A DNA stretch of 64,000 bases from Candidatus Woesearchaeota archaeon (lineage in GTDB: Archaea; Nanobdellota; Nanobdellia; Woesearchaeales; GW2011-AR9), in assembly GCA_945861715.1 (NCBI GenBank), contig CAMAVK010000001.1, forward strand, positions 458,908-522,907, read 5' to 3'. A program made the translations under genes and the position numbers. The notes below the pieces were generated by a model. The model was not told where the DNA came from. It searched no databases and saw nothing but the letters and a program-made list of their open reading frames with translations. Of this stretch, positions 6,218 to 43,767 are shown piece after piece (position 1 is the stretch's first letter; each line of letters begins with the position of its first letter).

Positions 6218-9178
6218 ATGAAACATCAACTTTCCTTTATTTTCATTCTATTATGTCTTGTTTGTACTTCTGTGTATGCAGAAGTCCCTACAATTACTCC
6301 TTTTGAAAATATCTACTTTATTCAAGGTATGAGCAACACCTATCAAGTAGAAGTAGATGGTCATGGTGATCAATTAATTTACCGATTAGTTGGTGCTCCA
6401 AATGGAATGACAATTAACAACAACGGCATTATCAGCTACACTGCTAACCTTGATGATCAATTCTATTTAATAGTCGACCTCACAGTAGAAAACCAAAATC
6501 AAGAACAATCAACATTACGCTTTGTTGTAACAACGAGGTCAGCTCTCCAAATAAATAATGTCATGATTGGAACATCAGACGACGATCTTCGCCAGCTAAA
6601 TAATGGTGGCTCTAGCATTCCTTTTCATCCTGGTGAAGAGGTCTATCTTACGTTTCAATTGGATAATGCCTACACCTTAGTAAATAACCCCTATCTCGAA
6701 CACGACATTTCACCAACCATTGAATCAATTGAGTACACGCTTAGCGAACAGGTAGGGATTTCATTTTTCAATGACCATGTGAGTGTGAATCAACCAATAA
6801 GAGCCCAAGGCATGCAGCAATACATCGTAAAAGGTCGACTACCTGTTGACCTTCAACTCGGAAATTATAATATTGAACTCACTGCAACAGGGTTTGATCA
6901 AGATGTACCTGCAAACGAACAAAGGGACACATTTACATTCAGTCTCCCCATCAGACGAAATCCACACGCACTAATGCTCACACCAACAACACCAAACGAA
7001 GTACTCGATAGAGTATTAACTTGCGATGAAACTTCCCAAATAGCAATCCCAGTTACATTTGCAAATACTGGTCAAGTCGATGAATTCGTCGTTGTAACAA
7101 TTGAAGACCATCATGGCAATTTCCTTGGTGATCTGCAATACCCTATAGCTGTAGGTGATGAGACGACGCAGACTGTGGATGTATTCCTCCCACGAGAAGA
7201 TGACAACAGCGTAACTGTGTATATAGCGCGGATACAAGACCAACAGACTATTATGGATAAATACGCCTTCAGTTATAGTTCAAGCGCGTGCTCGTCATTA
7301 AGTGTTGATGGTTCAAGCCCTAACTCCAATGACCTTACCCTACGAACCGGCTCTAATCAAGGCTTTGAACTTCTTATATCCAACCCCAGCAACACACCTT
7401 ATCAAGTACAATGGCGCTACAATAATCAACTCGTAAGCAATGGCAACACTTTCAATCTTCAAAATGTTCAAACGGGAATTCATACCCTTACTGTAAATGT
7501 AATTCAAGAGGATAGTATTGTATACCAAAAAACGTGGGATATCACTGCATCCAATCTACCACTTGGCTTCGATGCATTCACTGGTCCAGCAACAACCAAC
7601 CCTGCCAATATTATCAACATTCATTCAACTCCTCTAACACTCGAAAATAACTTTGGAAAAATAGTCTTCGATGCCAACCTTGATTTAAGTAACATAGAAG
7701 ATCTCTCAAGAGTCATTTCAATTACAAGTGGAAAAGTAGCAATTGATACTATTACAGCACCTGCATTAAATCGTCCAGCTACCATCACATTGTACCGGTC
7801 CTACGCAGATCCAAAAATAATGGTACAACCTGGTTTCAACAACGGGCAACTGAGCATCTGTAATGTATGTGTCATAACTTCAAATCAAGTAAATGCACTT
7901 ACATTCCACGTTCCGAATTTCTCAACATATGTTGGGGTTGAAAACAGCGGTATCGAATTAACAATTAATGAAATTGTAGCAACCAATATCATGCCAGGTA
8001 CTTCAGGTAATACCACTATCACCATCATAAACACTGGCGCTCAAGATCTAACCAACATACGCACGACTCTTCAAAATATAAACGCTAAATACCAAGCTAG
8101 AATAATCCAACAGCCACCTGCCGTGCTACATTCAGGCGAACAAGCAACACTCACACTAAGTCTCTTCATCCCTCTAGACGAGTCAGATGCAATACATACC
8201 ATTGGTACACTTCAGTTCACTTCAACGGAATTAAGTGCATCACAGCTAATTCAAGTTGACCCCACAAGTTATATCGAAATACAAAGTATCAAAGTCAATA
8301 GCAAAAGCAATGGTGATCTCGAATTAAATTCAAACCAGATCGAGTTCAAGGTAAAGAACAATTATCCTGAAGACATGGACGACGTAACAGTTACAGTTCG
8401 CATTCTTGATGTTAATGGTGATGACCTTGAAGAAGAAGTTGACAGTTTCAAATTGAGAACTGGAGATGACAAAAAAGTCACTGTTGACTTCGACCTCTCA
8501 GGCGAAACACTTGATGAAGATAGCTATACCATTGAGATAGAAATCGAAGCCGAAGCAGATGATAACTCCAACCATGATGCCGCAACAGACTTCACTGCTG
8601 ATGTTGACCGTGATCGTCATAACGTTGTATTCACCAGAACAGATCTCTCCATATCAAAATTATCTTGTGAGATGCAAACGGCATTGTATGTTACTATTGA
8701 AAATAAAGGAGAAAGCGACGAAGATGATCTTGAAATAAGAGTTTCAAACACCAACCTTAACATCGCCGAATCAAAGCGTTCCATTGATGTAGATGATTAC
8801 AGTGGTCCAGATCAAGAATATTCCGCCATATTCCCACTTGATCTAACAGGTAAAAATATCGGTACTTACCCCATCAAAGTGGAGTTGCTTCGCGACGGGG
8901 AAGTTGACGAAACACAATCTGTAACTCTTGAGATTACCACCTGTAGCAGCGGCACAACTAAAGCTGGCAGCATAACTGTGCTTGGTGATTCCAACCGTGG
9001 TGACGCGCTGCGAAATCAACTGGATCAAGCCCTCATTCAACACCAAGGAGGATCAAATTCACAAGTGACTGCATCATTTAGAGACTCAAATGTGTACACT
9101 TTGTTCCTTGGCGGACTTGTTTTGTTTGTACTCATCGCCGTGATGTTAGGGATTGCTGTTGCAATAAAACGTAAATAG
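6218..9178 (+). CDS. Large secreted surface protein (986 aa) with a C-terminal TM anchor and short basic tail
   Basis: Signal peptide LSFIFILLCLVCTSVYA. Multiple beta-rich repeat modules. C-terminal LFLGGLVLFVLIAVMLGIAVAIKRK. Confidence 0.6.
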   Translation: MKHQLSFIFILLCLVCTSVYAEVPTITPFENIYFIQGMSNTYQVEVDGHGDQLIYRLVGAPNGMTINNNGIISYTANLDDQFYLIVDLTVENQNQEQSTLRFVVTTRSALQINNVMIGTSDDDLRQLNNGGSSIPFHPGEEVYLTFQLDNAYTLVNNPYLEHDISPTIESIEYTLSEQVGISFFNDHVSVNQPIRAQGMQQYIVKGRLPVDLQLGNYNIELTATGFDQDVPANEQRDTFTFSLPIRRNPHALMLTPTTPNEVLDRVLTCDETSQIAIPVTFANTGQVDEFVVVTIEDHHGNFLGDLQYPIAVGDETTQTVDVFLPREDDNSVTVYIARIQDQQTIMDKYAFSYSSSACSSLSVDGSSPNSNDLTLRTGSNQGFELLISNPSNTPYQVQWRYNNQLVSNGNTFNLQNVQTGIHTLTVNVIQEDSIVYQKTWDITASNLPLGFDAFTGPATTNPANIINIHSTPLTLENNFGKIVFDANLDLSNIEDLSRVISITSGKVAIDTITAPALNRPATITLYRSYADPKIMVQPGFNNGQLSICNVCVITSNQVNALTFHVPNFSTYVGVENSGIELTINEIVATNIMPGTSGNTTITIINTGAQDLTNIRTTLQNINAKYQARIIQQPPAVLHSGEQATLTLSLFIPLDESDAIHTIGTLQFTSTELSASQLIQVDPTSYIEIQSIKVNSKSNGDLELNSNQIEFKVKNNYPEDMDDVTVTVRILDVNGDDLEEEVDSFKLRTGDDKKVTVDFDLSGETLDEDSYTIEIEIEAEADDNSNHDAATDFTADVDRDRHNVVFTRTDLSISKLSCEMQTALYVTIENKGESDEDDLEIRVSNTNLNIAESKRSIDVDDYSGPDQEYSAIFPLDLTGKNIGTYPIKVELLRDGEVDETQSVTLEITTCSSGTTKAGSITVLGDSNRGDALRNQLDQALIQHQGGSNSQVTASFRDSNVYTLFLGGLVLFVLIAVMLGIAVAIKRK

Positions 9179-12265: not shown

Positions 12266-13573
12266 ATGAATCAGTACAAGGTGATAATGCTAAGTATAGC
12301 TCTACTTATGCTAAGCACAAGCCTTATTTATTCCATCACCATCATCTCACTAACCGGTGCTGCAACCGATTCTGCCGGTACTGTCGGTTTTTGCAAAGTT
12401 CTCTATCCACGTTTAGACACCATTCCCAATCAAATAGGTTATGTCGGAACACCTTTCACTTATCCAGTCAATGTAAGCCCAGATTGTGGGGAGAGAATTA
12501 CCTTCTCCGGAGTACCGGTTCCTGATCTCTCCTCATTTCATATTAACTCCTCAACTGGTGTCATTGATATAACTCCTCAAGCAGGCGAAGAAGGTGTGTA
12601 TGATCTCAACATCTTCGTGGTAAAAAATGGGTTCGCATTAAACACGACTGTCTTTACATTTACTATCTTAGGAACCATTCGACCAACCAATTTTACGTGC
12701 ATAAAAAACACAACCAACTCCAGTAGAGTATACCTTAATTGGGATAACGTATCCACTGCATCATATTACAAAATCTATTACGCAACCAACATCTCCCAAG
12801 TCGCAAATATGACCTCAAACACCAGTCTGGGCAGCAATGTCAGTACCATATCATTACTTAATCAAAGTGAGTGGAGCGACAACAACCATCTTGGTGTCTT
12901 AAGGCGTTATTACACTGTTGTGGCTGTAGTAAACGGAACCGAAGGATACTCAGACGAACCAGTTTGTGGAAAAATCACCTATCAATACACCGCACCAGTT
13001 TCTAGCACCTATGGTACATTAGCCTCAAACCGTATTGTCCATTATCTCAACACCACAATGGACGCAGAAACGTGGCTTCAAGAAATTCCAGAAGGAAATA
13101 ATCCTACTATCTCTCGATTGGATAAATCAAACGCCTCAGGTGAGTATTATACAACCCATGTTCGTGGTCTACTCGATGGAAACAATTTCAATGTTGATCC
13201 AACCATTGGATATTTAATCACCACAGACAACTATTATAATCAAACCGTAGTCGGAAAAATATATCGACCTCCCTATAATATCAGCTACGACGCCCCTGTC
13301 TCAACGGTGTATGGAACACTTGCTTCAAACGCCAGAGGACCGCATGATAGCATCAAATATTATTATGCTGAAACATTTTTACAAGAAATCCCTGCCGGAC
13401 TCAACCCAACCGTATCACGTTTAGATAAGGGTAATGCCGAAGGAGAATATCTAACAACTCACGTGCGTGGTTTAGATGATGGAAATAATTTTTATATGCA
13501 GCCAGGAATTGGATACCTCATAACCACAGATGGATATTATAATCACTCCACCTGTAGCATGTGTTTTAGATAA
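12266..13573 (+). CDS. Secreted protein: Ig-like domain, FN3-like domain, then two tandem ~100-aa repeats
   Basis: Signal/TM peptide VIMLSIALLMLSTSLIYS. FN3-like segment (RPTNFTCIKNTTNSSRVYLNWDNVSTASYYKIYYAT). Repeats PVSSTYGTLASN...TISRLDKSNASGEYYTTHVRGLLDGNNF... and PVSTVYGTLASN...TVSRLDKGNAEGEYLTTHVRGLDDGNNF.... Confidence 0.55.
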   Translation: MNQYKVIMLSIALLMLSTSLIYSITIISLTGAATDSAGTVGFCKVLYPRLDTIPNQIGYVGTPFTYPVNVSPDCGERITFSGVPVPDLSSFHINSSTGVIDITPQAGEEGVYDLNIFVVKNGFALNTTVFTFTILGTIRPTNFTCIKNTTNSSRVYLNWDNVSTASYYKIYYATNISQVANMTSNTSLGSNVSTISLLNQSEWSDNNHLGVLRRYYTVVAVVNGTEGYSDEPVCGKITYQYTAPVSSTYGTLASNRIVHYLNTTMDAETWLQEIPEGNNPTISRLDKSNASGEYYTTHVRGLLDGNNFNVDPTIGYLITTDNYYNQTVVGKIYRPPYNISYDAPVSTVYGTLASNARGPHDSIKYYYAETFLQEIPAGLNPTVSRLDKGNAEGEYLTTHVRGLDDGNNFYMQPGIGYLITTDGYYNHSTCSMCFR

Positions 13574-13621: not shown

Positions 13622-14749
13622 ATGAAAAGACAACACACAAACATCAATTATCATCGCACAAATATCAATTATCATCATCTAACTTTATTTCTAACTCTAT
13701 TTCTGATTTTACTCATTCCTGATGTATTAGCCACCAGTAAACCAATCTCAAGCACCCTGCAGTTTCCAAGTGGTTCTATCCACTCAGTGCCAATTACTGT
13801 TCACGCCCAAGCAACCGGAACGGGTACTCCTCAAGAATGTATCACCAACCCTCTTGTGTACACTGGAGAGAAAGGAAGTTTTGCAACTAATTTAGATAAT
13901 CTCATAATTAAAAGTGCACCCTCCCTTCGTTGCAATGGACTATGGTCAATTGGAGATAAAATCTGGTATAGCTATACCCTCAACAATCAAGAGTATTCAT
14001 CGCCTGTTGACACCATTAAATCAGGAACCGGCTTACAAGTTCTTATACCAATGGATGTTGGTCCCCTTGTACCAAACCCTTCATCACCCCCTGGATCATC
14101 CCCTGGTAGTTCAAATGAAAACACTAACCCCTCCTCCCCCAATCCTACCACTCCACCCAACGCTGACAATAATGGCAAAATCACAGCATCGCCAGACGCA
14201 TCAACTATTGAATTATTACTTCAATCGACACCCATTGACGACATCGTAAAGGTAACTGTATTTGGCCGAGTAACAAAAGGTGATCTCACAACCGCTACAA
14301 TTCGCATCGAACTACGAAGAATGCCAGACAATAAATTAGTTGATTATAGGGAAGTTGAATCCTCATTTCCATCAACAACAGAAGTAAATTTTGATGTCTC
14401 TCAAATCAAATCTGGTTTATACCAAGTCCAAGCCACTGCTCTACAAAACGGAGTCATTATTGCCGCTTCAGCCCCTGATACATTCACCCTTCGTAGACCT
14501 AATGAAGAGATACCTGCAAAATCAAATCTTGGTGGCATGGCAATAGCATTAAAAAATAATACTTCCTCACTTTTAGACAGCCCCTATCTTGCACTAGCCT
14601 CATACTTTATCTCATTTTTCCTCATACTTATTGCGCTCCTACTTTTCATGTACAAAAGGCGACACTACGCAACACCAATCCCAGTAGAAATAATCGGGGA
14701 AACAGTTGAACAATCAGGGAAATCAGAGAAAACAATCACCAAAAAATAA
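13622..14749 (+). CDS. Surface protein with a conserved two-cysteine N-terminal module, a P/S-rich linker, an Ig-like domain and a C-terminal TM anchor
   Basis: Signal peptide LTLFLTLFLILLIPDVLA. N-terminal module TSKPI...QECITNPLVYTGEKGSFATNLDNL...CNGLWSIGDKIW...SGTGLQVLIP, shared with the 16077 protein. C-terminal ALASYFISFFLILIALLLFMYKRRH. The true start is probably internal because the first 20 codons are a low-complexity NINYH repeat. Confidence 0.55.
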   Translation: MKRQHTNINYHRTNINYHHLTLFLTLFLILLIPDVLATSKPISSTLQFPSGSIHSVPITVHAQATGTGTPQECITNPLVYTGEKGSFATNLDNLIIKSAPSLRCNGLWSIGDKIWYSYTLNNQEYSSPVDTIKSGTGLQVLIPMDVGPLVPNPSSPPGSSPGSSNENTNPSSPNPTTPPNADNNGKITASPDASTIELLLQSTPIDDIVKVTVFGRVTKGDLTTATIRIELRRMPDNKLVDYREVESSFPSTTEVNFDVSQIKSGLYQVQATALQNGVIIAASAPDTFTLRRPNEEIPAKSNLGGMAIALKNNTSSLLDSPYLALASYFISFFLILIALLLFMYKRRHYATPIPVEIIGETVEQSGKSEKTITKK

Positions 14750-15828: not shown

Positions 15829-16080
15829 ATGCCTGCAGTACTTGATGGACTATTGGATAAAAAGACCGCATCATTACTGAAAGTTCTTTTAAAAAATAAA
15901 GACGAAATATACCATCTCCACTCTCTTTCTAGGGCGTCAAAAGTACCCGTCTCCTCTACTTCTAGAATTGTAACTAAACTAATCAAATTAGATCTGATAA
16001 CAACAAGAAAAGTCGGCAATATGGTCCTATTCCAAGCATCAAATTCTGAAAAAGCAAAATTGGTGGGTGATTTGCTATGA
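15829..16080 (+). CDS. Small winged-helix (MarR/ArsR-like) transcriptional regulator
   Basis: 83 aa. Helix-turn-helix region IYHLHSLSRASKVPVSSTSRIVTKLIKLDLITTRK followed by a beta-wing (VGNMVLFQ). Its TGA stop overlaps the start of the giant surface-protein gene (ATGA). Confidence 0.5.
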   Translation: MPAVLDGLLDKKTASLLKVLLKNKDEIYHLHSLSRASKVPVSSTSRIVTKLIKLDLITTRKVGNMVLFQASNSEKAKLVGDLL

Positions 16081-19000
16081 GTCAATCCACTAAGTCTACC
16101 AAAACCGTACTCCGCCTAAGTTTATTCATAATCATCCTCCTCCTCACATCAGCAACCGTACTCGCAGCTACAAAACCTATTGCTGGCTATATTTTCAAAA
16201 CAGACGGAACAACAGTGGCACCAAACGCGAGCGTACGAGTCTACGTAAACCAAGCTTCCGTGAGTGCAGCAAACCCGTGCTACACAAACCCTGCTGTTCT
16301 CTCCGGTGTAGATGGTTCATGGTCTACTAATCTCGCAAATTTGAAGCGAGCAGATAATGGGAATGATTGCTCTGGATTTTGGGCAACAGGGGATGCAATA
16401 TGGGCAAACGCCATTGGCCAAAACGTAACTCCTGAACACGGAAACCTTTCCACTGCAAATACAACCATCGCATCAGGAACCGGACTCCAGTATCTCTCAA
16501 ACGTTAGTCTCCCTGCAGGGCCGGATCGAATCGCACCAGTAATTCGTCTCATCGCCCCACCAAACGCCACCAACAACACCAACGGCTCCATCCTCTTTCA
16601 ATACAATGTAACCGATGACAGTCTCATTAGTAATTGTAGTGTACTATTCAACGGTACAATAAATACGACAAATACCTCTATAACCAGAAACATCACCATG
16701 AACTTCAGCCTCACCAATATTGCTGATGGCCACTATAATTGGTCTGTTGGATGTTATGATAACGTTACAAATTATAACACCAGTATTGAGACATGGTTCC
16801 TAAACGTATCGAAAGTAGGTCATTATAACTTAAGTCTTGTAACCCCGACGTCCAACACCAGCGTTGAACAGAATCAATTTTTTACTTTTACTATGCAAGT
16901 GAAATGTTATGATGGAAGCTGTGGTGATACAAATGCAAGTCTTGACCCTATTATTCTTGGTGAAGATCAAACAATTGTCTCCCAGAACAAATTTCACTCA
17001 CAAGGATTCTTTGAAAAAATATGGTCTTACTTCGCTGAATTCTTTTCAGGGAATCTCATCACCGGGCAAGTAACAGGTGCGCTCGTTCCCATGGTACCAA
17101 CCACACCATTTTACACTAATATGTCAAACCCTATGAACCTAAGTAATGTAAGTTGTCTAGCTAATATGGCTCAAAATAGCGCATGCAACGTAACATGGTA
17201 TGTCAACGCGTCAGGTCCTGTTGGGACCGTAGCAGAGTTCTGGGCATTTACTAACTCTACCATATACACCGCGCTGAACAATGAGACTCCACATTTATTT
17301 ATCAGTATAGTTGAATCAATCCCACCTGCTATTATTAATTACACTCCTCGAGGAGAGACTTTTAATGTCACCCAATTAATAGAAATCAGTCTTAACACCA
17401 CCGACCCCCAAAACATATCTTTTGTAAAAGCAAACATTACATATCCTAATGCAACCGTTGACCTAATTAATCTTACTCGTGTGGGTACTACCGATAAATA
17501 CAACAGCAGTTACACCATCCCGCCAAGAACTGGGTTCTACCTAATCAAATTTTGGGTAAATGATACAGGAAACAACATCAACGGAACAACTCAAACAAAT
17601 TTCACAGGTCAAGATATTGTCCCTCCTAACGTTACCACCCTCCTCCCTGCAATTTCAACAAGCTACAACACATCCCAAATAATTCAAATATCACTTAACG
17701 CAACTGACGTAACAAATATCAGCACAACGTTTGCCACCATCACTTCACCCAACAGCACCAAAACAAACGTCACCCTAAGTCGCCAAGGCACTACATACAA
17801 ATACAATGGAACCTACACTGTTCCTCCCCGCATTGGCACATTCAACATTACCTTCTTTGCAAATGATAGTAAAAATAATATCAACAATAGTGAAGTTTCA
17901 AACTTCACGGTACTCGATGGCGAATATCCTCGCCTAGCAACCATTGTAGAAGCCCCAACTGACCCGGCAACATACGTATATAATCAAACATATTTTTTCA
18001 ACATTACTATCACTGACAATATTGGAATAAACAATGTTATCATGCAATTCAATAACACAAATTACACCGCAGAAATAAAAAATCAAAGCACCATTTTTCA
18101 ATTCAACATCTCAGATCTCGCAGCCGCAACATACAATTATGTCTGGTATGCAAATGACACCAGTGGCTACATCAATTCTACTTCCTCTACCTACACCATC
18201 AGCAAAGCATCATCAACTGTAAATCTAACTTTATATGGAAATGATAGTAACACCAATATCAGTGTAAACACACCAGTTAACCTAAGCGGGGTACGAATCG
18301 CCGGTGATGGACAAATAGAATTACTTCAAAACGGATCCGTTCTCTCACTTGGCAATACAAGTACCTCCTCGAACCAAACCTATACCACGCTAACTTCATA
18401 TAATATCAGCATTCGACACAATTCTACTCAAAATTTCACTGCAAGTCAAGAAGATCATGTCCTCGCAATAAAGGATTATATTTCACCAAACGTCACCCTT
18501 GTAACCGTAAACGCTTCAAGCGTCAATCAAACGCAACATGTCAGAATAAACGCAACGATAATTGACAATCTTCAAATTGATTCCATTAAAACACAAATTT
18601 GGTTCCCCAACGGATCGGTCCAAAATTTCACCATGAATAACATCAGCTCTTCGTTTAATACCACCTATATCACAATTCTCACATCAAACATAGGAAACCA
18701 CACTGCACAAATTCTAGCTAACGATACCTCCGGAAATAGAAATACCACTCAAAACGTAAGCTTTTGGGTGTATGACATAACTCCACCTGCAGTTACTTTA
18801 CTCATACCCGCAAATCAAACTACTCTAGGAAATGGGACTACTATCCAATTGTCATCAACAACGACAGATAATATCGCAATATCGAGTACATATGCAAATA
18901 TTACTTACCCAAATAATTCCATTCAATCTATCCCCCTCACACTTACCACCGCATCAAAATATAATTCATCCTTGCTTCTAGGTCAACAAACAGGAATTTA

Positions 19001-21080
19001 TCTGATGCAAATATTTTCCAATGATTCAAGTAACAACATCAATGCAACAGAACAAGTATTGTTCTATGTGAACGAGACGGACGGTCCTCCAAATGTAACT
19101 CTAGTTGCAGTAAACGTATCAAGCGTTAATCAAACGCAGCATGTCAGAATCAATGCAACTGTCATGGATGCAATAAGTGTAGATACCGTTAAAACGCAAA
19201 TATACTTCCCTAATGGCTCAATCCAAAATTTCACGATGAGTAATGTGAGCTCCTACTATAACACCACCTATATCACAATTCTCACATCAAACATTGGAAA
19301 TCATACCGCGCAAATTATTGCAAACGATACCAATGGAAATAGAAATACCACTCAAAACGTCACCTTTTGGGTATACGACATCACACCACCCAATGTCACA
19401 GCTTTAATCCCGACAAATCAATCCACTGTATTCACCGGAACCAGCATTCAAATCGCAGCGAATGTAACAGACAACACTGCTCTCTCAACAGTATACGCAA
19501 ATATCACCTATCCAAATAGTTCAATCACCTCATTGCCCTTATCGTTAGCAACAGGTGCCAAATACAACTCTACTCTCACCTTGGGTTCATACAATGGAAC
19601 CTACACACTCCTTATCTTTTCCAATGATAGCAGCAATAATATCAACGCCACCGAACAAACACAGTTCTTTGTAAACACCTCAGATAATGCGCCAGTTGTA
19701 ACCTTGCTAAACCCTGCAGACAGCTATACGAATACTACTTCTACCTATCTTGAGATGAACTTTTCATGTTCTGCAACCGATGATTACGCCCTACGCAATA
19801 TCTCATTATACCTAAGCAATCCATCAAACACCAATTTTAGTCAGAATCAAAGTACTCTTCTTAATGGTACAACTAACTCTACTTCATGGCTACTTAATCT
19901 TACCCAAGGCTCCTTCACCTGGAACTGTCAAGCAATTGACAACAGTACTCAACTCGATTGGGCATCAAACCGCAGTATAACCCTATCTGCCCCTTCTTCC
20001 TCAAGCAGCAGTTCAAGCTCCTCCGGTGGTGGTGGTGGAAGTAGTTCAAGTACATCGAGTAGTAGTGGCGGGCCTATACCACAAAAAAGAGTAGATGTAA
20101 ATGCAACCCCGACATGTCTATGGAATGAAAGCATCATCGCAGGAAATTGCATGTACAATGAAAGTAATGTATTGCTAAATGCTTCACCTACTGAGATCCC
20201 AATAAACTCAAACCAAGGAATATTCAATTTAGTGGGAAGAGCATTTGATATAAACATCCATGCCTTTGGTCTAGACCTTAGTCTACTTTACATTGCCTTG
20301 ATGGTATTCCTCTTGGGCTTATTAGTGCTTTTACTGACCAGACGAAAACGACCATACCTTATTATTCAAGCACCAACCATGGCCGCCCCCGGTGACACCT
20401 TTGATGTAAACGTCAAACTAGGTAATGATTATCGGCCAGTTGTATTAAGAATTTGGAGTATTTTCGTTCCTGAGGGAGAAGTTGGTCTGCTAAACATCAA
20501 AAATATTATCGGCAAAGGCCCAACCTATCGTCTCGAAGTAGACCGATCAGAAATAAGGCGTGGCACCATTCCTGTGGCTATACCAGCACAGTTTATGCCG
20601 GGGAAATATCGAATCATCACGTGTGTGCGGTGGGAATACAAGAAGACAAATGAGCCAAAATCCCTTGTAGAAAAAGGAACAACCCAAGAAAAAATAAAAA
20701 TAACTGCTCATCAAAATAAAATAACGGTTACCCAAACTAAGTTACCTATCCCACCTGCGCTTCTAGTATTAGTGGGTAAACGAAGTCGGCTTCCAGAAAA
20801 TATCGCAATCAACTTACAAACCATGCGTGAAAAGCTCGCGCCAACTGCAAACATTGTTGAACTCGCAAGAACTCGTGAAGAAATTGTACTACGTATGCAC
20901 CAAGCAGAGAAAATGCATAACTTGCGTCTCAAAAAGTTAGAAATCGAAGAGGATATGCGACACACCGAAGAAGAAGGAGTACTACAGCTTCAGTTAACGA
21001 GACTAAATAGTACATTAACTAAGAATGCGGCACCCGTGCAACGCTCAACACAAACACCCACAAAAAGGGACAGAAAGTAA
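16077..21080 (+). CDS. Giant (1667 aa) heavily sequon-decorated surface protein: signal peptide, conserved N-terminal module, about 12 beta-sandwich repeats, poly-Ser/Gly stalk, single TM, ~260-aa cytoplasmic tail with a coiled coil
   Basis: Signal peptide LRLSLFIIILLLTSATVLA. N-terminal module homologous to the 13622 protein (ANPCYTNPAVLSGVDGSWSTNLANL...CSGFWATGDAIW...SGTGLQYL). N-x-S/T sequons occur every ~5-10 residues. Stalk SSSSSSSSSGGGGGSSSSTSSSSGG. TM LLYIALMVFLLGLLVLLLTRRKRP. The cytoplasmic tail ends in a K/E/R-rich coiled coil. Confidence 0.7.
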   Translation: MSQSTKSTKTVLRLSLFIIILLLTSATVLAATKPIAGYIFKTDGTTVAPNASVRVYVNQASVSAANPCYTNPAVLSGVDGSWSTNLANLKRADNGNDCSGFWATGDAIWANAIGQNVTPEHGNLSTANTTIASGTGLQYLSNVSLPAGPDRIAPVIRLIAPPNATNNTNGSILFQYNVTDDSLISNCSVLFNGTINTTNTSITRNITMNFSLTNIADGHYNWSVGCYDNVTNYNTSIETWFLNVSKVGHYNLSLVTPTSNTSVEQNQFFTFTMQVKCYDGSCGDTNASLDPIILGEDQTIVSQNKFHSQGFFEKIWSYFAEFFSGNLITGQVTGALVPMVPTTPFYTNMSNPMNLSNVSCLANMAQNSACNVTWYVNASGPVGTVAEFWAFTNSTIYTALNNETPHLFISIVESIPPAIINYTPRGETFNVTQLIEISLNTTDPQNISFVKANITYPNATVDLINLTRVGTTDKYNSSYTIPPRTGFYLIKFWVNDTGNNINGTTQTNFTGQDIVPPNVTTLLPAISTSYNTSQIIQISLNATDVTNISTTFATITSPNSTKTNVTLSRQGTTYKYNGTYTVPPRIGTFNITFFANDSKNNINNSEVSNFTVLDGEYPRLATIVEAPTDPATYVYNQTYFFNITITDNIGINNVIMQFNNTNYTAEIKNQSTIFQFNISDLAAATYNYVWYANDTSGYINSTSSTYTISKASSTVNLTLYGNDSNTNISVNTPVNLSGVRIAGDGQIELLQNGSVLSLGNTSTSSNQTYTTLTSYNISIRHNSTQNFTASQEDHVLAIKDYISPNVTLVTVNASSVNQTQHVRINATIIDNLQIDSIKTQIWFPNGSVQNFTMNNISSSFNTTYITILTSNIGNHTAQILANDTSGNRNTTQNVSFWVYDITPPAVTLLIPANQTTLGNGTTIQLSSTTTDNIAISSTYANITYPNNSIQSIPLTLTTASKYNSSLLLGQQTGIYLMQIFSNDSSNNINATEQVLFYVNETDGPPNVTLVAVNVSSVNQTQHVRINATVMDAISVDTVKTQIYFPNGSIQNFTMSNVSSYYNTTYITILTSNIGNHTAQIIANDTNGNRNTTQNVTFWVYDITPPNVTALIPTNQSTVFTGTSIQIAANVTDNTALSTVYANITYPNSSITSLPLSLATGAKYNSTLTLGSYNGTYTLLIFSNDSSNNINATEQTQFFVNTSDNAPVVTLLNPADSYTNTTSTYLEMNFSCSATDDYALRNISLYLSNPSNTNFSQNQSTLLNGTTNSTSWLLNLTQGSFTWNCQAIDNSTQLDWASNRSITLSAPSSSSSSSSSSGGGGGSSSSTSSSSGGPIPQKRVDVNATPTCLWNESIIAGNCMYNESNVLLNASPTEIPINSNQGIFNLVGRAFDINIHAFGLDLSLLYIALMVFLLGLLVLLLTRRKRPYLIIQAPTMAAPGDTFDVNVKLGNDYRPVVLRIWSIFVPEGEVGLLNIKNIIGKGPTYRLEVDRSEIRRGTIPVAIPAQFMPGKYRIITCVRWEYKKTNEPKSLVEKGTTQEKIKITAHQNKITVTQTKLPIPPALLVLVGKRSRLPENIAINLQTMREKLAPTANIVELARTREEIVLRMHQAEKMHNLRLKKLEIEEDMRHTEEEGVLQLQLTRLNSTLTKNAAPVQRSTQTPTKRDRK
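18485..19690 (+). repeat. Near-identical 603-nt (201-aa) tandem duplication inside the giant surface-protein gene
   Basis: Unit 1 (NVTLVTVNASSVNQTQHVRINATIIDN...ITILTSNIGNHTAQILANDTSGNRNTTQNVSFWVYDITPP...FSNDSSNNINATEQ) is repeated immediately as unit 2 (NVTLVAVNVSSVNQTQHVRINATVMDA...ITILTSNIGNHTAQIIANDTNGNRNTTQNVTFWVYDITPP...FSNDSSNNINATEQ). Nucleotide strings such as caagcgt(c/t)aatcaaacgca(a/g)catgtcagaat(a/c)aa(c/t)gcaac recur at 18519 and 19122. Confidence 0.85.
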
Positions 21081-25960: not shown

Positions 25961-26072
25961 CGGGCCCTGAGGGATTTGAACCCCCGACCTCGTGGTACCT
26001 ATCAATTACTCATTCCTTTCGGATTAGCAATGTTAAGAGCCACGCGCTCTAGCCAGCCTGAGCTAAGAGCCC
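25961..26072 (-). tRNA. tRNA-Lys (anticodon CUU) with a ~37-nt canonical-position intron (after nt 37). CCA is not encoded.
   Basis: Minus-strand read GGGCTCT-TA-GCTC-AGGCTGGCTA-GAGC-G-CGTGG-CTCTTA[intron ACATTGC...GATAGGT]A-CCACG-AGGTC-GGGGG-TTCAAAT-CCCTC-AGGGCCC-G. All four stems pair, U33 and A37 are present, and the T-loop is TTCAAAT. Exons are at about 26034-26072 and 25961-25996. Confidence 0.85.
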
Positions 26073-35145: not shown

Positions 35146-37638
35146 ATGACCAATAGTGTACTTGATGTTGATGAACAAAATCTTACTCCTGGGATGAAAC
35201 AATACAGGGAAGTAAAAGAAAAACATCCAGACTGTGTAGTCATGCTTCGCATGGGAGACTTCTTTGAAATGTTCTATGAAGACGCGGTCACTGCGTCAAG
35301 AGAGCTCGACATCACTTTAACATCCCGTGGTCAAGGTGAAAAACGCGCACCACTCGCAGGCATTCCCTTTCATGCTATTGAACCGTATCTAGGAAAACTT
35401 GTAAAGCGCGGCTACAAAGTTGCAATTGTAGAACAACTTGAAGATCCAAAAAAAGCCAAAGGTCTAATCAAGCGTGGAGTAGTGCGAATAGTTACCGCAG
35501 GAACTTTAGTTGAATCATCTCTTCTTACCGAAAAAGAAAATAACTATCTAGCAAGCATTGCAATTCACAACACAAGCGCAGCTCTTGCCATTGCTGACAT
35601 CTCAACAGGTGAGTTTCGAATCGAATCATTTTCAACATTATCAGACCTATTCGCATCCCTCACCCAAAATAATCCCTCAGAAATACTGCACGCGCACAGC
35701 TTAGCTGTAAACTCCGACATCATCGCCCGTCTGAAAATCATCGCTCCTCTTGAATCACTTGATGACCAACTTTACAAATATGACGCAGCAAAAAAAAGAA
35801 TCTGTGATTTCTTTAATCTAACTTCTCTAGATCCCTTTCAGCTTGAGAATCAAAAATTAGAAGTTGCGGCCGCCGCATCACTATTGAACTATCTCGAGAA
35901 AACCCACAAAACAAAACTAGTACACCTAACAAAAATAACCAGATCAAGTACCAAGCATATGATCATTGACGCAAATACCTTTCGCAGTTTAGAAATCACG
36001 AAATCCCTTAAAGACGGATCAAAAAAAGGCACGTTACTTGAAGTATTAGACGACACCAAAACAGCCCTCGGCGGACGCCTCTTGAACAAATGGCTCACAG
36101 CTCCCCTCCAAGATCAAATTCAAATGCAAGACCGCATCGCAGCCATTACTGATTTAAAGTCATCTTCTCTACGTCTCGCCCAACTCCAAAATACCCTCAA
36201 CACTATTCAAGATATCGAACGACTTCTATCGAAGGTACATACAGCCATTGCCACCCCAAAGGACATCTTAAGTTTACGTAACTCGCTGCGACCACTCCCA
36301 ATCCTCATAACTCAACTCTCACCAAAAACACTTCGTGCATTAAGATTAAAAGAAATCGCCACCTTAAATACTCACCACGAGTTGGTTCATTATCTCACAC
36401 AAGCAATGCGTGATGAAGCTCCGCACAGCACCCGTGAAGGTGACATCTTCAACTCAGAGTTTCACCAAGAACTCTCTAGTTTGAGAAACATCCGTGATCA
36501 CGCATCCGACATCATAACGAAAATTGAAGAAGCTGAAAAAAAGAAAACGGGAATTAATTCTCTCAAAGTAGGCTACACACGAATATTTGGGTACTACATC
36601 GAAATACCTCGAAAGAATACTCAACAAATCCCTACGACCTACATGCGAAAACAAACAACTGCCAACGCCGAAAGATACATAACTTCCGAATTAAAAGAAA
36701 TGGAAGACAAAGTTCTCAATGCTGATGAGAAAATAAAAGAGTTAGAATATACCCTCTTCCATGAACTTTTAAACAACATAAAATTTCATACTTCCGAGTT
36801 ACAAGAAACTGCCAAGCATATCGCAGAGCTCGACGTACTCTGCGCGCTCACCAGCGTCGCGATAAAAAATAATTATCATGCCCCAACACTATCCAACGAA
36901 AAAGATCTAATCCTTACCAACGCAAGACACCCCGTCGTAGAAACGCTTGCATCAAATTTCATCTCAAATAGTATCACGCTGCAAGACGGACATATGATGA
37001 TCATCACTGGACCAAACATGGCTGGTAAATCAACCATCATGCGACAGTGCGCATTAATAATCTACTTAGCTCATATTGGCTCCTACGTTCCAGCAACATC
37101 CGCAATCATCCCACTCACAGATAAAATATTTAGTCGAGTAGGAGCTCAAGACGATTTAGCAACAGGAAAATCAACCTTCTTAGTTGAAATGCATGAAACT
37201 GCACACATAGTAAACAACGCAACCGCCAATTCATTTATTATCCTTGACGAAATCGGAAGAGGAACAAGCACCTTTGATGGTGTCTCCATTGCGTGGAGTG
37301 TAGCTGAGTACATTCATAACCACATCCGCGCAAAAACCATGTTTGCCACACACTATCACATACTAAACAATCTCACTCAAACTCTTCCTCGAATTGAAAA
37401 CTTCAACATCGCAGTCGAAGAAAATCAAAAAGAAAATTCCATCACCTTCTTACACACATTAATCCCCGGCGGAACGGATCAAAGTTATGGGATTCACGTC
37501 GCAAAAATCGCAGGCATCCCCCAACAAATCCTCGAGCGTGCAACACAAATACAACAGACATTAGAAAAAGATGACAAAATGGTGCGTCTCCTTAAAGCGA
37601 AGCGACTCGACGACCAGAAATCAATAACTGAATTTTAA
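35146..37638 (+). CDS. mutS: DNA mismatch repair protein MutS (bacterial-type MutS1)
   Basis: Domain I mismatch-binding motif LTPGMKQYREVKEKHPDCVVMLRMGDFFEMFYEDA (Phe-x-Glu). Walker A ITGPNMAGKSTIMRQ. Walker B/ABC signature IILDEIGRGTSTFDG. HTH-like C-terminus. TAA stop. No mutL in the window. Confidence 0.88.
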   Translation: MTNSVLDVDEQNLTPGMKQYREVKEKHPDCVVMLRMGDFFEMFYEDAVTASRELDITLTSRGQGEKRAPLAGIPFHAIEPYLGKLVKRGYKVAIVEQLEDPKKAKGLIKRGVVRIVTAGTLVESSLLTEKENNYLASIAIHNTSAALAIADISTGEFRIESFSTLSDLFASLTQNNPSEILHAHSLAVNSDIIARLKIIAPLESLDDQLYKYDAAKKRICDFFNLTSLDPFQLENQKLEVAAAASLLNYLEKTHKTKLVHLTKITRSSTKHMIIDANTFRSLEITKSLKDGSKKGTLLEVLDDTKTALGGRLLNKWLTAPLQDQIQMQDRIAAITDLKSSSLRLAQLQNTLNTIQDIERLLSKVHTAIATPKDILSLRNSLRPLPILITQLSPKTLRALRLKEIATLNTHHELVHYLTQAMRDEAPHSTREGDIFNSEFHQELSSLRNIRDHASDIITKIEEAEKKKTGINSLKVGYTRIFGYYIEIPRKNTQQIPTTYMRKQTTANAERYITSELKEMEDKVLNADEKIKELEYTLFHELLNNIKFHTSELQETAKHIAELDVLCALTSVAIKNNYHAPTLSNEKDLILTNARHPVVETLASNFISNSITLQDGHMMIITGPNMAGKSTIMRQCALIIYLAHIGSYVPATSAIIPLTDKIFSRVGAQDDLATGKSTFLVEMHETAHIVNNATANSFIILDEIGRGTSTFDGVSIAWSVAEYIHNHIRAKTMFATHYHILNNLTQTLPRIENFNIAVEENQKENSITFLHTLIPGGTDQSYGIHVAKIAGIPQQILERATQIQQTLEKDDKMVRLLKAKRLDDQKSITEF

Positions 37639-38191: not shown

Positions 38192-39274
38192 ATGATCTAC
38201 GCTACCCTCACCCAAGAAAACCGTACAGAGAACTCGTTTAGTTTAGAAGGAAACACTGCAATTGGTCGCAAGCTCCTTCCGGATAAGGACTTATTCGAGT
38301 TATGGGAACGAAGAATAACCTCTTCCAAGCACAAAAATAATGGTGCCACACGCATGGCGCCCATTTCAGTTACAGAATTACAACATCAATATTCTCAAAA
38401 AAATCTCGATCTCATAATCAGCGACAATATTGACGTATCGCGTCGTCATCTCCTATTTTGTGTGCCTAACTGGGGAATGAATGCCTATCACGTAATCGAT
38501 TTATTCAGTTATTATGGCACCACCGTAAACGGCGAAAACTTAACTCCTGCGGTGCCTAAAAAGGTAAGCCATGGTGATAGAATCACAATTCTAGGCAAAA
38601 CTGAAATCCCTTTTATATTCAAAGAAGTAGAACGCGTTACAAAGTATGAAGCAATTATTATCGCGAACCCAGACGGGACCTTAGACTGTAATGAGCCTAT
38701 CGCAGCGGAACTAGAAGATTTACTTCTCAAACGTAATTTCAAAGTAGACACATTAAAATCAAATGTTCAACTTAAACAAGTAACAAATAGTATAGCACAA
38801 AAAGCGAGATCATTACGGTCGCACGACTATTTATTATTTCTGTATCTTGGGCATGGATCAAAAAACGGCGAATTACGTTTTGCAGATAATGGTTTCGTGC
38901 ATGCCTCAAATTTATACTCCTCACTAAGTACTGTTCCCGCAAAAAAAATCATTTTATTAGATTGTTGTTATGGGAAGAATTTTCTCATTCCTGAGATTCC
39001 TCTGAACTCAGCTGTTGCCGTAAGTACATCGAGGCTAGATCTATCTTACACCAATACGTTTACCAAGGGATTAATTCGACGATTACAAGACCCGAGGGGG
39101 GGTTATTTTGAGCGTGTGATTGATGATGCTTGCCATTATGCCGAAGTAGAATTACGTCTATGTGGGATGGAACCCGGAACAAAAGCCTCAATGGTCACTT
39201 ATTTTAATACAGCAAGAGATGAAGATCGTGAACAAGCTCGCAAAGATATGAATAATTTTATTCATCAAAAATAA
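38192..39274 (+). CDS. FHA domain - caspase-like (peptidase C14, metacaspase/orthocaspase) fusion protein
   Basis: N-terminal FHA signatures: NTAIGRK, VSRRHLLF, GTTVNGENL, GDRITILG. C-terminal C14 catalytic dyad: His in LFLYLGHGSKNGELRF and Cys in KKIILLDCCYGKN (compare the DCCHSG of metacaspases). Confidence 0.65.
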   Translation: MIYATLTQENRTENSFSLEGNTAIGRKLLPDKDLFELWERRITSSKHKNNGATRMAPISVTELQHQYSQKNLDLIISDNIDVSRRHLLFCVPNWGMNAYHVIDLFSYYGTTVNGENLTPAVPKKVSHGDRITILGKTEIPFIFKEVERVTKYEAIIIANPDGTLDCNEPIAAELEDLLLKRNFKVDTLKSNVQLKQVTNSIAQKARSLRSHDYLLFLYLGHGSKNGELRFADNGFVHASNLYSSLSTVPAKKIILLDCCYGKNFLIPEIPLNSAVAVSTSRLDLSYTNTFTKGLIRRLQDPRGGYFERVIDDACHYAEVELRLCGMEPGTKASMVTYFNTARDEDREQARKDMNNFIHQK

Positions 39275-42359: not shown

Positions 42360-42432
42360 GTTCCTTCTCCACCCATACGGTCACTGGGCACCAAACATAA
42401 GTTTTATTAATCCCACACTGTCATTATCCTCC

Positions 42433-43632
42433 ATGAAAAAGGTGGTTGATGCTGTTATAATTATTATACTTCTATTATCACTCACATCCATCGCACTAGC
42501 TGACACCTATATCAGTGGAGTTTTTCCCACTATCAATAGTACCAACATCAACGCGTTTCAAGTCAATGGAAATGCAGCACAAACCGGAAGTGTACTCCGG
42601 CTTACTCCCGCGTCTAACAATCAAGCAGGTAGTGCATTTTGGAAATACAAAACGGATTTTCCTGCCAACCGCTCATTTGCAACTTATTTCTCATTTCAAA
42701 TAACAAGCACGGGTGGCGGCGGAGCTGACGGATTAGTCTTTGTCATACAACCCGATTCAAATACGGCTGGATCTTCAGGAGGCGGCCTTGGATTCTCCGG
42801 CATACCAAACGCATTTGGTGTCGAATTTGATACCTATCAAAACGGTGACTATGGTGATCCGAACGGGAATCACATTGGTATTGATTTAAGCCCGGGTGGT
42901 TTGGGCAGCGTTACTTCTGTAGCCACTGTTACCGTTGACTCAATCAACTCCTCGTGGTCTCTTGAAGATGGGGCAATATATCACACCTGGGTTGAATATA
43001 ACGGGAGTACCCAAAATATTACTATTCGCTTGAACCGCAACAACAATACTCGTCCAATAAATGCAGTATTAAATTACACCACAAACCTCTCCAATGTATT
43101 TGCACAGCAAGCGTACGTCGGCTTTACTGCTGCTACTGGCGGTGCCTACGAGAATCACGATATAAACAGCTTCTTCATAAATAATAACTATCTCTCTGAC
43201 GGAATAAACATTAATACGACCACTTATCAACCCTATGCATACAGGCTACTATTAAGCCAAAGTCATTTAAACGTCTCCGCCGATGGATACTCCGTCTCCG
43301 CTATAACCATCAACGCAACCGATCTTGATGGAAACTTATTACCCACTCAAAACATTTCTTTTACAACAACCTTGGGAAACATTATGCCTTTAGGGGATAA
43401 ATATGCTTCAAGTGGTTTAACTAATAGCACAGGTCAATTGTATCCAGTCTACGCTAGTTCCCATCTACCTGGAACCGCAACTATCACTGCCTCCGTCCCA
43501 GGTGGAGCATATAATATCACTACTGTGACTTTTTTAAATAGTGGTGCAACTGTTCCTGAGTTATCAACTATAGCTCTATTCCTCATCATCGCATCTGTTT
43601 TCTCTGGGTTCTTTTATATACGCACAAAATAA
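42433..43632 (+). CDS. Secreted surface protein with an N-terminal L-type (legume-lectin-like) lectin domain, a Big-like domain and a C-terminal TM anchor
   Basis: Signal peptide IIIILLLSLTSIALA. Legume-lectin signature blocks FQVNGNAAQTGSVLRLTP...NQAGSAFW...FATYFSFQITSTGGGGADGLVFVIQP...GGGLGFSGIPNAFGVEFDTYQNGDYGDPNGNHIGIDL. C-terminal ELSTIALFLIIASVFSGFFYIRTK. Confidence 0.65.
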   Translation: MKKVVDAVIIIILLLSLTSIALADTYISGVFPTINSTNINAFQVNGNAAQTGSVLRLTPASNNQAGSAFWKYKTDFPANRSFATYFSFQITSTGGGGADGLVFVIQPDSNTAGSSGGGLGFSGIPNAFGVEFDTYQNGDYGDPNGNHIGIDLSPGGLGSVTSVATVTVDSINSSWSLEDGAIYHTWVEYNGSTQNITIRLNRNNNTRPINAVLNYTTNLSNVFAQQAYVGFTAATGGAYENHDINSFFINNNYLSDGININTTTYQPYAYRLLLSQSHLNVSADGYSVSAITINATDLDGNLLPTQNISFTTTLGNIMPLGDKYASSGLTNSTGQLYPVYASSHLPGTATITASVPGGAYNITTVTFLNSGATVPELSTIALFLIIASVFSGFFYIRTK

Positions 43633-43767
43633 TTGACCTAGCATCCCAATCCCACTGTCTCATCCTCCCCGAAAACTTTATAAACAACCTACATTCTTGG
43701 TCCCTTACCGTTAAAACTACACACAGTATGCGTCATATTCTGCGTTCTGCCAATGTAGGAGGGAAAT

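Follow-up and report, generated by a model that had tools for sequence, protein, structure and literature searches.

We analysed a 64,000-nt stretch of DNA (hereafter, the window) from a Candidatus Woesearchaeota archaeon (GCA_945861715.1, CAMAVK010000001.1, forward strand, 458,908-522,907; GTDB lineage Archaea; Nanobdellota; Nanobdellia; Woesearchaeales; GW2011-AR9), focusing on a gene that encodes a surface protein with an L-type (legume) lectin domain. The gene is a complete open reading frame (ORF) on the plus strand (42433..43632), which starts with ATG and specifies 399 amino acids followed by a stop codon, and its product is identical to a database entry (P0001) encoded on a contig of 796,844 bp. 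An initial annotation, made from the sequence alone, had placed an archaeal lectin at this position, and the two motifs quoted in it were found in the translation, VEFDTYQN at residues 130-137 and DPNGNHIGID at residues 142-151.

Domain architecture of the lectin protein

The features of the protein described in this and the next section are all encoded on the plus strand. The N terminus, MKKVVDAVIIIILLLSLTSIALA|DT, is shaped like a signal peptide, which is predicted by hydropathy and sequence to comprise residues 1-23 (42433..42501) with MKK, a hydrophobic core and ALA|DT, and the A-x-A pattern would place the cleavage site at its end; the AlphaFold2 (AF2) model has a helix at residues 2-16. 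The L-type lectin beta-sandwich follows at residues ~28-255 (42514..43197), as indicated by Pfam, by a phmmer search of the PDB and by Foldseek, and is succeeded by a Big_1 (intimin/invasin-type) immunoglobulin (Ig)-like domain at residues ~271-368 (43243..43536), a stalk that was identified by Pfam and the AF2 model. The C-terminal tail at residues 374-399 (43552..43629) consists of VPEL, a hydrophobic helix and RTK, and the C terminus, VPELSTIALFLIIASVFSGFFYIRTK, thus presents a hydrophobic helix and then basic residues, with a helix at residues 378-398 in the AF2 model. This tail is predicted to be a membrane anchor and may include a PEP/PEF-CTERM-like signal.

In the Pfam scan, Lectin_legB (PF00139) matched residues 38-252 with an E value of 5.2e-40 and 138 bits (cutoff, 26.3), Lectin_L-type_dom (PF18483, formerly named as a 'bacterial lectin' family) scored 125 bits, well over its cutoff of 78.3, and Lectin_leg-like was also matched (E=9.5e-10). 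Both of the families that the initial annotation had put forward for a profile search therefore exceeded their curated cutoffs; no rival beta-sandwich family gave a better match, the lectin residues were complete, and none of these results lay close to chance. Big_1 (PF02369) was matched at residues 275-367 with 36.8 bits, a narrow margin over its cutoff of 34.9, and the match covered 88 of the 93 profile positions, while Invasin_D3, with 30.3 bits, was under its cutoff in the same scan. The scan detected no catalytic domain in the protein, and an NCBIfam scan gave no model for the protein as a whole. Taken together, the profile, structure-sequence and fold searches bear out the architecture initially proposed, that is, a signal peptide, an L-type lectin, a Big-like domain and a C-terminal membrane anchor. 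The protein also carries 14 N-X-S/T sequons (3.5 per 100 amino acids versus a window mean of 0.78), a density that is matched by only two other predicted surface proteins in the window and suggests that it is probably heavily N-glycosylated.

Fold and predicted carbohydrate-binding site

The AF2 model was built on 52 homologues, and the same 52 prokaryotic homologues were used to assess residue conservation. With a mean predicted local distance difference test score (pLDDT) of 87.4 and a predicted template modelling score (pTM) of 0.79, the model comprises, between the two terminal helices, the beta-sandwich at ~28-255 and an all-beta domain at 271-368 (pLDDT of ~90). The phmmer search of the PDB matched ~90 L-type lectins, the best of which were those of Pterocarpus angolensis (1e-15) and peanut (2e-14). 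The Foldseek search against the PDB was in agreement with this result, the top 35 matches being all legume lectins with template modelling scores normalized to the target, TM(target), of 0.72-0.80; the match to pea lectin (2bqp) had an E value of 7e-15 and a TM(target) of 0.80.

Three loops were identified in the lectin domain by alignment to plant lectins. Loop A, A98-D99-G100 (42724..42732), aligns to the ADG of the peanut and Pterocarpus lectins and includes a putative sugar-binding Asp. Loop B, G116-G117-G118-L119-G120 (42778..42792), aligns to the GGG(T)LG of peanut lectin and would provide the backbone Gly of a putative sugar-binding triad. The metal/sugar loop C at residues 130-151 (42820..42885), which reads V-E131-F-D133-T-Y135-Q-N137-GDYG-D142-PNGN-H147-IGID, was also aligned to peanut lectin, and HMMER alignments indicated that the spacing of E131, D133, Y135, N137, D142 and H147 (0, +2, +4, +6, +11 and +16) is identical to that in its sequence VEFDTYSNSEYNDPPTDH. 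We take the residues of these loops to be the Mn2+/Ca2+ ligands and the Asp/Gly/Asn sugar-binding triad of legume lectins, and A98-D99 to be the position of the Ala-Asp cis-peptide. Across the 52 homologues, D99, G100, G116, G120, E131 and D133 were invariant, and A98, N137 and H147 were conserved in at least 90%. Such invariance or near-invariance of the site residues throughout the family is an argument that selection maintains a functional site. Sugar binding by the lectin domain appears to be well supported by the sequence, and the domain would also bind Mn and Ca.

With respect to the type of sugar, the specificity loop, GFTAATGGAYENHDI, aligned without a gap to that of the mannose/glucose-specific Pterocarpus lectin and with a gap of one residue to that of the galactose-specific peanut lectin. 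Sharma and Surolia reportedly put forward, in 1997, a loop-length rule for the specificity of legume lectins. Furthermore, the characterised bacterial L-type lectins, YwfG (10.1101/2022.08.19.504583) and Llp1/Llp2 (PMC4990349), bind mannose. Because of the gap-free alignment of the loop and the mannose binding of these bacterial members, our guess, on a weak basis, would be a ligand of the mannose/glucose type.

Relatives, genomic setting and strain-variable presence

A search of 5.8 billion proteins yielded only two close sequences, both with an identity of 54%, and all the others had an identity of 49% or less. One of the two orthologues is annotated as Ca. Woesearchaeota (MBI2572663.1), and the other is on a contig with archaeal neighbours. 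More distant homologues with the same combination of a lectin and a Big_1 domain, which were 36-44% identical over ~90% of the length, are on contigs with bacterial genes (such as holA and MlaD). When one genome per GTDB species was searched, at least 505 loci were found, and the best 80 were all bacterial, including Chloroflexota, Bacillota, Proteobacteria, Planctomycetota and Verrucomicrobiota; this represents a strong bias and not a full census, as neither the genome of the window nor that of the HYV86 Woesearchaeote, which has a lectin orthologue, was among the matches listed. In a neighbour-joining tree of 160 sequences (218 columns, 100 bootstraps), the three Woesearchaeota lectins were monophyletic in 98 of the 100 bootstraps, and this clade was always among bacterial sequences, with its sister group not resolved. 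The tree distances from the window lectin were 0.75-0.87 for bacterial homologues, 1.24 for peanut lectin and 1.75 for the lectin of Methanocaldococcus jannaschii. We concluded from these sequence comparisons that the cassette of the lectin and Big_1 domains would have entered Woesearchaeota from bacteria. This acquisition was probably independent of the lectin domain of Methanocaldococcus, which suggests that the domain entered archaea more than once. Elsewhere in the window, a complete bacterial-type MutS with all five domains (I-V) is encoded at 35146-37638 (+) and may also be of bacterial origin.

The C-terminal tail can be written as VPEL-STIALFLIIASVFSGFFYI-RTK, and its tripartite arrangement of a short motif, a hydrophobic helix and a basic end is as in PEF-CTERM substrates. 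The tails of the orthologues, VPEWS...RKKIE and IPEWS...NKKVD, are comparable, and the three Woesearchaeota proteins share (V/I)PE(L/W)S followed by a helix and basic residues. As a lead, this layout resembles the signals of exosortase/archaeosortase (PEP-/PEF-CTERM) systems. The tail scored 14.6 bits for PEF-CTERM (TIGR03024), below the cutoff of 23, and the two orthologue tails gave no match to this model; for PEP-CTERM, it scored 13.2 bits with TIGR02595, below the cutoff of 16, and gave no match to PF07589, while the tail of a bacterial homologue, used as the positive control for PEP-CTERM scoring, gave 29.6 and 33.3 bits. Among Euryarchaeota, a subset is known to have archaeosortases (PMC6098224). 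Because the scores were sub-threshold and the 64-kb window contained neither an archaeosortase-like multi-pass protein nor a second ORF with a PE[FLW] tail, the assignment of the protein as an archaeosortase substrate was dropped. The initially proposed transmembrane anchor stands as a hydrophobic C-terminal anchor, and the tail may be more than a plain anchor in view of its VPEL-hydrophobic-basic layout, which is sub-threshold. Bacterial members of the lectin family are mostly small proteins, and their predominant architecture is one L-type lectin domain with a canonical PEP-CTERM tail after it, a combination often met in Betaproteobacteria that form flocs and biofilms. The VPEL of the archaeal tail recurs in one Sphingomonas tail (L081). 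A limited literature search found no paper on proteins with a lectin domain and PEP-CTERM or on the legume lectin domain of M. jannaschii.

The genomic setting of the gene is archaeal. Immediately on its 3' side are the genes for L1, L10 (P0, carrying the RL10P insert) and a P1/L12 of the 60S-acidic type, which constitute an archaeal-type operon, and the L1 homologues that bear names (57-66% identity) are all from Candidatus Woesearchaeota, Nanoarchaeota or Nanoarchaeia. These neighbours confirm the archaeal origin given to the surface protein in the initial annotation, and the organism is a Woesearchaeote, belonging to the DPANN archaea. An independently made Logan assembly (ERR3719144; contig of 124.5 kb) has the identical gene order, and, because of this, the window contig is not chimeric. 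The lectin gene has a GC content of 0.422 and a GC content at third codon positions (GC3) of 0.372, which are within ~1.2 standard deviations of those of the window genes, and the comparison of composition with these genes gave no significant anomaly indicative of recent transfer. At ~27 nt 5' of the ATG, a TATA-like box, TTTTATTAA (42402..42410, +), was read from the sequence, and TTTATAT(A) was found also in the two Woesearchaeota orthologues at ~25-31 nt ahead of the ATG. This box implies that the gene would have a promoter of its own and a leaderless or near-leaderless mRNA. No paralogue of the lectin was found in the 64-kb window.

The bacterial character of both domains, together with the all-bacterial origin of the best 80 matches listed among the species representatives, could be taken to mean that a bacterial gene was misjoined to archaeal sequence in assembly or binning. 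This explanation is, however, already effectively refuted, as the gene sits among archaeal genes in a 64-kb window of a 797-kb contig and recurs in the same arrangement in the independent Logan assembly, its GC and GC3 are near those of the window genes, an archaeal-style TATA box is present, and the orthologues are on two other Woesearchaeota contigs that carry EF-1alpha and S10. On the HYV86 contig, a 375-residue Laminin_G_3 (ConA-like) protein is encoded between EF-1alpha and S10 (L082 1586-2713), being a candidate for a second lectin-fold surface protein there. ORF 13622-14749 of the window, which is similar in size, was considered as a LamG protein of this kind and ruled out, having no Pfam match.

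To examine the locus in relatives, we used L1 and the 147-residue Zn-ribbon protein encoded upstream of the lectin gene. The closest relative for which the locus sequence was compared (L089; 88% amino acid identity for both the Zn-ribbon protein and L1) has the Zn-ribbon gene, 183 nt and then rpl1, without a lectin gene (L089 530-720), and another relative (L090) has the Zn-ribbon gene and rpl1 separated by a spacer of 220 nt, also without it (L090 506-735). The slot is occupied by ~330 nt of non-coding sequence in L086 (78% L1 identity), by a minus-strand gene for 256 amino acids in a relative with 69% L1 identity, and by three unrelated genes, including purD, in a relative with 75% L1 identity, in which the synteny of MgtC and the genes for 154 and 159 amino acids is retained. 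For a relative with 89% L1 identity, the 135-residue fragment encoded upstream was not among the Zn-ribbon homologues. The two orthologues of 54% identity are located away from rpl1, with GST upstream and HIT downstream. Thus, the content of the slot that separates the Zn-ribbon gene from rpl1 varies, and among the sampled relatives the lectin gene fills it only in this genome; the gene is an accessory one with a strain-variable presence/absence polymorphism.

An imperfect direct repeat of ~30 nt flanks the gene on both sides. The left copy, AATCCCACACTGTCATTATCCTCCATGAAAA (42409..42439, +), is composed of AATCCCACACTGTCATTATCCTCC and ATGAAAA and overlaps the start codon, and the right copy, AATCCCACTGTCTCATCCTCCCCGAAAA (43648..43675, +), is composed of AATCCCACTGTCTCATCCTCC and CCGAAAA, starts 16 nt past the stop codon and is fused to the conserved rpl1 promoter. 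The gapped pattern was found nowhere else in the 64 kb, and the local alignment score of the copies was 17, whereas 2000 shuffles reached at most 16 and the flanks of 51 control genes at most 14. The 3' part of the right copy, CCTCCCGAAAA, is retained upstream of rpl1 in relatives without the lectin gene, as is the rpl1 promoter CCGAAAACTTTATAAACA, into which this copy runs. The empty-site spacers of L089 and L090 gave scores of 9-10 with the repeat halves, near chance, being too diverged for junctions to be read. The repeat bracket is suggestive of an insertion or recombination scar, a target-site duplication not being proven, and the contrast between filled and empty sites is suggestive of recent mobility of the gene. 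A gain of the gene is favoured over a loss by parsimony only.

The promoter/leader region of rpl1 is itself conserved in the Woesearchaeota relatives (window 43669-43767; L086 275-380; L089 617-716; and L090). Its conserved elements are CCGAAAACTTTATAAACA, ACCG(T/A)TAAAACTACACAC and GTAGGAGG, and the sequence upstream of them is hypervariable. This leader could be a regulatory element, possibly one bound by L1.

Several other features of the window were noted. The ORF at 16077-21080 (+) encodes 1667 amino acids with ~7.6 N-X-S/T sequons per 100 amino acids (~126 sites) and a weak Big_7 match, making it a candidate giant glycoprotein of the cell surface or S-layer. Sequons are abundant also in ORF 12266-13573 (435 amino acids; 4.1 sequons per 100 amino acids), which has a weak He_PIG match. 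Two adjacent ORFs, 4683-6179 (+) and 6218-9178 (+), encode proteins of 498 and 986 amino acids with an N-terminal hydrophobic segment and a C-terminal transmembrane anchor; with essentially no Pfam match and no VPEx motif, they represent further uncharacterised surface proteins. At 38192-39274 (+), an FHA domain is combined with a caspase-like Peptidase_C14 domain, an unusual pairing of signalling and protease modules for a small DPANN genome. At 25961-26072 (-), a tRNA detected by Rfam and not found by ARAGORN spans 112 nt against a model of 71 positions, and probably contains an archaeal intron.

Proposed role and comparison with known lectins

Based on these features, the protein would be exported through its Sec signal peptide and displayed as a type-I, N-glycosylated cell-surface protein, held in the membrane by the C-terminal helix or, should an archaeosortase in fact recognize the VPEL tail, by a lipid that replaces the helix. 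The single Big_1 domain would serve as a short stalk, at the distal end of which the lectin domain would face outward. Ca2+ and Mn2+ held by E131, D133, Y135 (through its backbone), N137, D142 and H147 would fix the loops, allowing D99, the backbone of G117/G118 and N137 to contact a sugar, which would be likeliest of the mannose/glucose type. At the level of the genome, the bacterial-derived lectin and Big_1 cassette would sit as an accessory, strain-variable gene. We propose that the protein serves to attach the archaeon to glycans of another cell, which could be a host or a partner, and put the probability of this reading at roughly 0.55. It is favoured because the organism belongs to the DPANN archaea, because the presence of the gene is strain-variable, and because of the analogy to YwfG. 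The initial annotation had taken the protein to imply that a host or partner cell is recognized by way of carbohydrates, a reasonable reading that agrees with proposals made for other lectin-like surface proteins of DPANN archaea; the sugar-binding part of that reading is supported by the complete and conserved site, and a host cell as the target is to be read as a suggestion.

Several points weigh against adhesion to another cell. The sequence names neither the ligand nor the cell that bears it, and the sugar specificity of L-type lectins is not reliably readable from sequence, while cis-peptide geometry and metal occupancy are beyond what a predicted structure can tell. The Woesearchaeote is probably symbiotic and at most a presumed episymbiont. 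No genes for adhesion or host interaction are clustered at the lectin locus, where the neighbours are MgtC and the rpl1 operon. Furthermore, many of the bacterial relatives are PEP-CTERM proteins of floc- and biofilm-formers, which point equally to the binding of a matrix.

This last point leads to the alternative that the lectin binds the N-glycosylated envelope proteins of its own cell or an exopolysaccharide, organizing the envelope, aggregates or a biofilm without any choice of host. The small proteins with a lectin domain and PEP-CTERM that make up most of the bacterial relatives occur in floc and biofilm groups (Zoogloea, Thiobacillus and Accumulibacter), PEP-CTERM systems are tied to exopolysaccharide production (PMC6098224, on the exosortase/archaeosortase concept), and the sequon-rich surface proteins of the window, such as that of 1667 amino acids with ~7.6 sequons per 100 amino acids, are potential self-ligands. 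The absence of the gene in the closest relative would, however, be unusual for a core organizer of the envelope. DPANN genomes are, moreover, small and usually without exopolysaccharide machinery of their own. We consider such a role unlikely on balance, though it deserves serious attention. The intact lectin site would also suit the capture of environmental polysaccharides or glycoproteins, tethered by the lectin head for degradation or uptake, and the bacterial relatives include very large proteins of many domains from polysaccharide-degraders (such as Paenibacillus, Cohnella and Chitinispirillaceae); because the lectin gene adjoins no gene for carbohydrate use, be it a glycoside hydrolase, a transporter or another, and the protein has no catalytic domain, this seems improbable. 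Finally, the lectin fold could act in protein-protein interaction or as a structural module without lectin activity, for which the non-canonical legume-like domains of the staphylococcal proteins Aap, SasG and Pls (PMC9999234) would provide a precedent, but the family-wide retention of the full canonical set of metal and sugar residues would not be expected in a degenerate module, making this role more improbable still.

Adhesion to the glycans of another cell thus remains the preferred reading, and it may be extended to a more specific scenario, in which a bacterial cassette of the lectin, Big_1 and a PEP-CTERM-like tail was captured by Woesearchaeota and is now mobile as a repeat-flanked, strain-variable insertion, is processed by a new DPANN archaeosortase that recognizes PE(L/W)S, and binds bacterial rather than archaeal partners through the glycans already read by the donor. 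We regard this scenario as a rather long shot; if it were true, a host-range determinant would have been acquired from the domain of the host itself.

Partner recognition and attachment in DPANN archaea are largely unknown, and most of the candidate adhesins are giant proteins that are lectin-like at the fold level only. The present lectin, with its 399 amino acids, canonical conserved site, clear domain order and presence/absence contrast in close relatives, is unusually tractable, and experiments on how Woesearchaeota recognize partners could conveniently start from it. Neither the protein nor the proposed role is without precedent, as an archaeal legume-lectin domain and DPANN proteins with lectin and Ig-like folds are already on record. 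What is modestly new is the fully canonical site, which resembles those of plant and bacterial lectins more than the M. jannaschii domain does, the clear bacterial affinity of the cassette and the polymorphism of filled and empty sites. The case adds a clear example of the transfer of a module for surface recognition from bacteria into archaea, without changing any concept.

Compared with the plant legume lectins (peanut lectin, 1ciw/2pel; Pterocarpus lectin, 1n3o; pea lectin, 2bqp; and ConA), the window protein has the same fold, with Foldseek E values of ~1e-14 and TM(target) of 0.72-0.80, and the same set and spacing of Mn/Ca and sugar residues. The identity to them is 25-30%, and they are soluble, oligomeric and eukaryotic, whereas the window protein is membrane-anchored, archaeal and equipped with an Ig-like stalk. 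The arrangement of an N-terminal head, a stalk and a surface anchor is shared with the bacterial L-type lectins YwfG of Lactococcus lactis (7yl4-6), Llp1 and Llp2 of L. rhamnosus GG, and SraP (4m00), and that of an N-terminal L-type head on a stalk with an anchor also with the uncharacterised bacterial sets of lectins with PEP-CTERM and with Big_1; the structures of YwfG (7yl4) and SraP (4m00) were directly matched by the window lectin. YwfG, which binds mannose, aggregates foreign (yeast) cells (10.1101/2022.08.19.504583), and Llp1 and Llp2 promote adhesion (PMC4990349). The bacterial proteins differ in their anchors, which are LPXTG, WxL or PEP-CTERM in place of VPEL-helix-RTK, and the window protein differs in having an archaeal host and promoter and, presumably, N-glycosylation.

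Among archaea, the legume lectin of M. jannaschii (7elv/7exo) is likewise an L-type domain with a solved structure, and it was the best PDB match of the family profile (E=1.2e-38), with a Foldseek TM(target) of 0.80. It is, however, the most distant of the sequences compared (1.75 versus 0.75-0.87 for bacterial homologues) and has, in the alignment, Pro at the position of the metal-bridging D142 and Trp for Y135. Because of this larger distance and these substitutions, the two archaeal lectins are not close relatives. The lectin-like proteins of other DPANN archaea, MJ1_0179 of Nanobdella aerobiophila and the ConA-like/LamG proteins of Nanohalobium constans, have been proposed, not demonstrated, to function in host recognition (bioRxiv 10.1101/2023.10.27.564410; PMC7443923), and are extracellular, with a legume/ConA-like lectin fold, an Ig-like fold and many glycosylation sites; the likeness to them is drawn from the published descriptions. 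MJ1_0179 has an N-terminal transmembrane helix where the window protein has a C-terminal anchor, and the Nanohalobium proteins are LamG/ConA-like and not canonical L-type. The window protein has the traits by which this class is described in the literature, a DPANN genome, a surface lectin fold with an Ig-like domain and many sequons.

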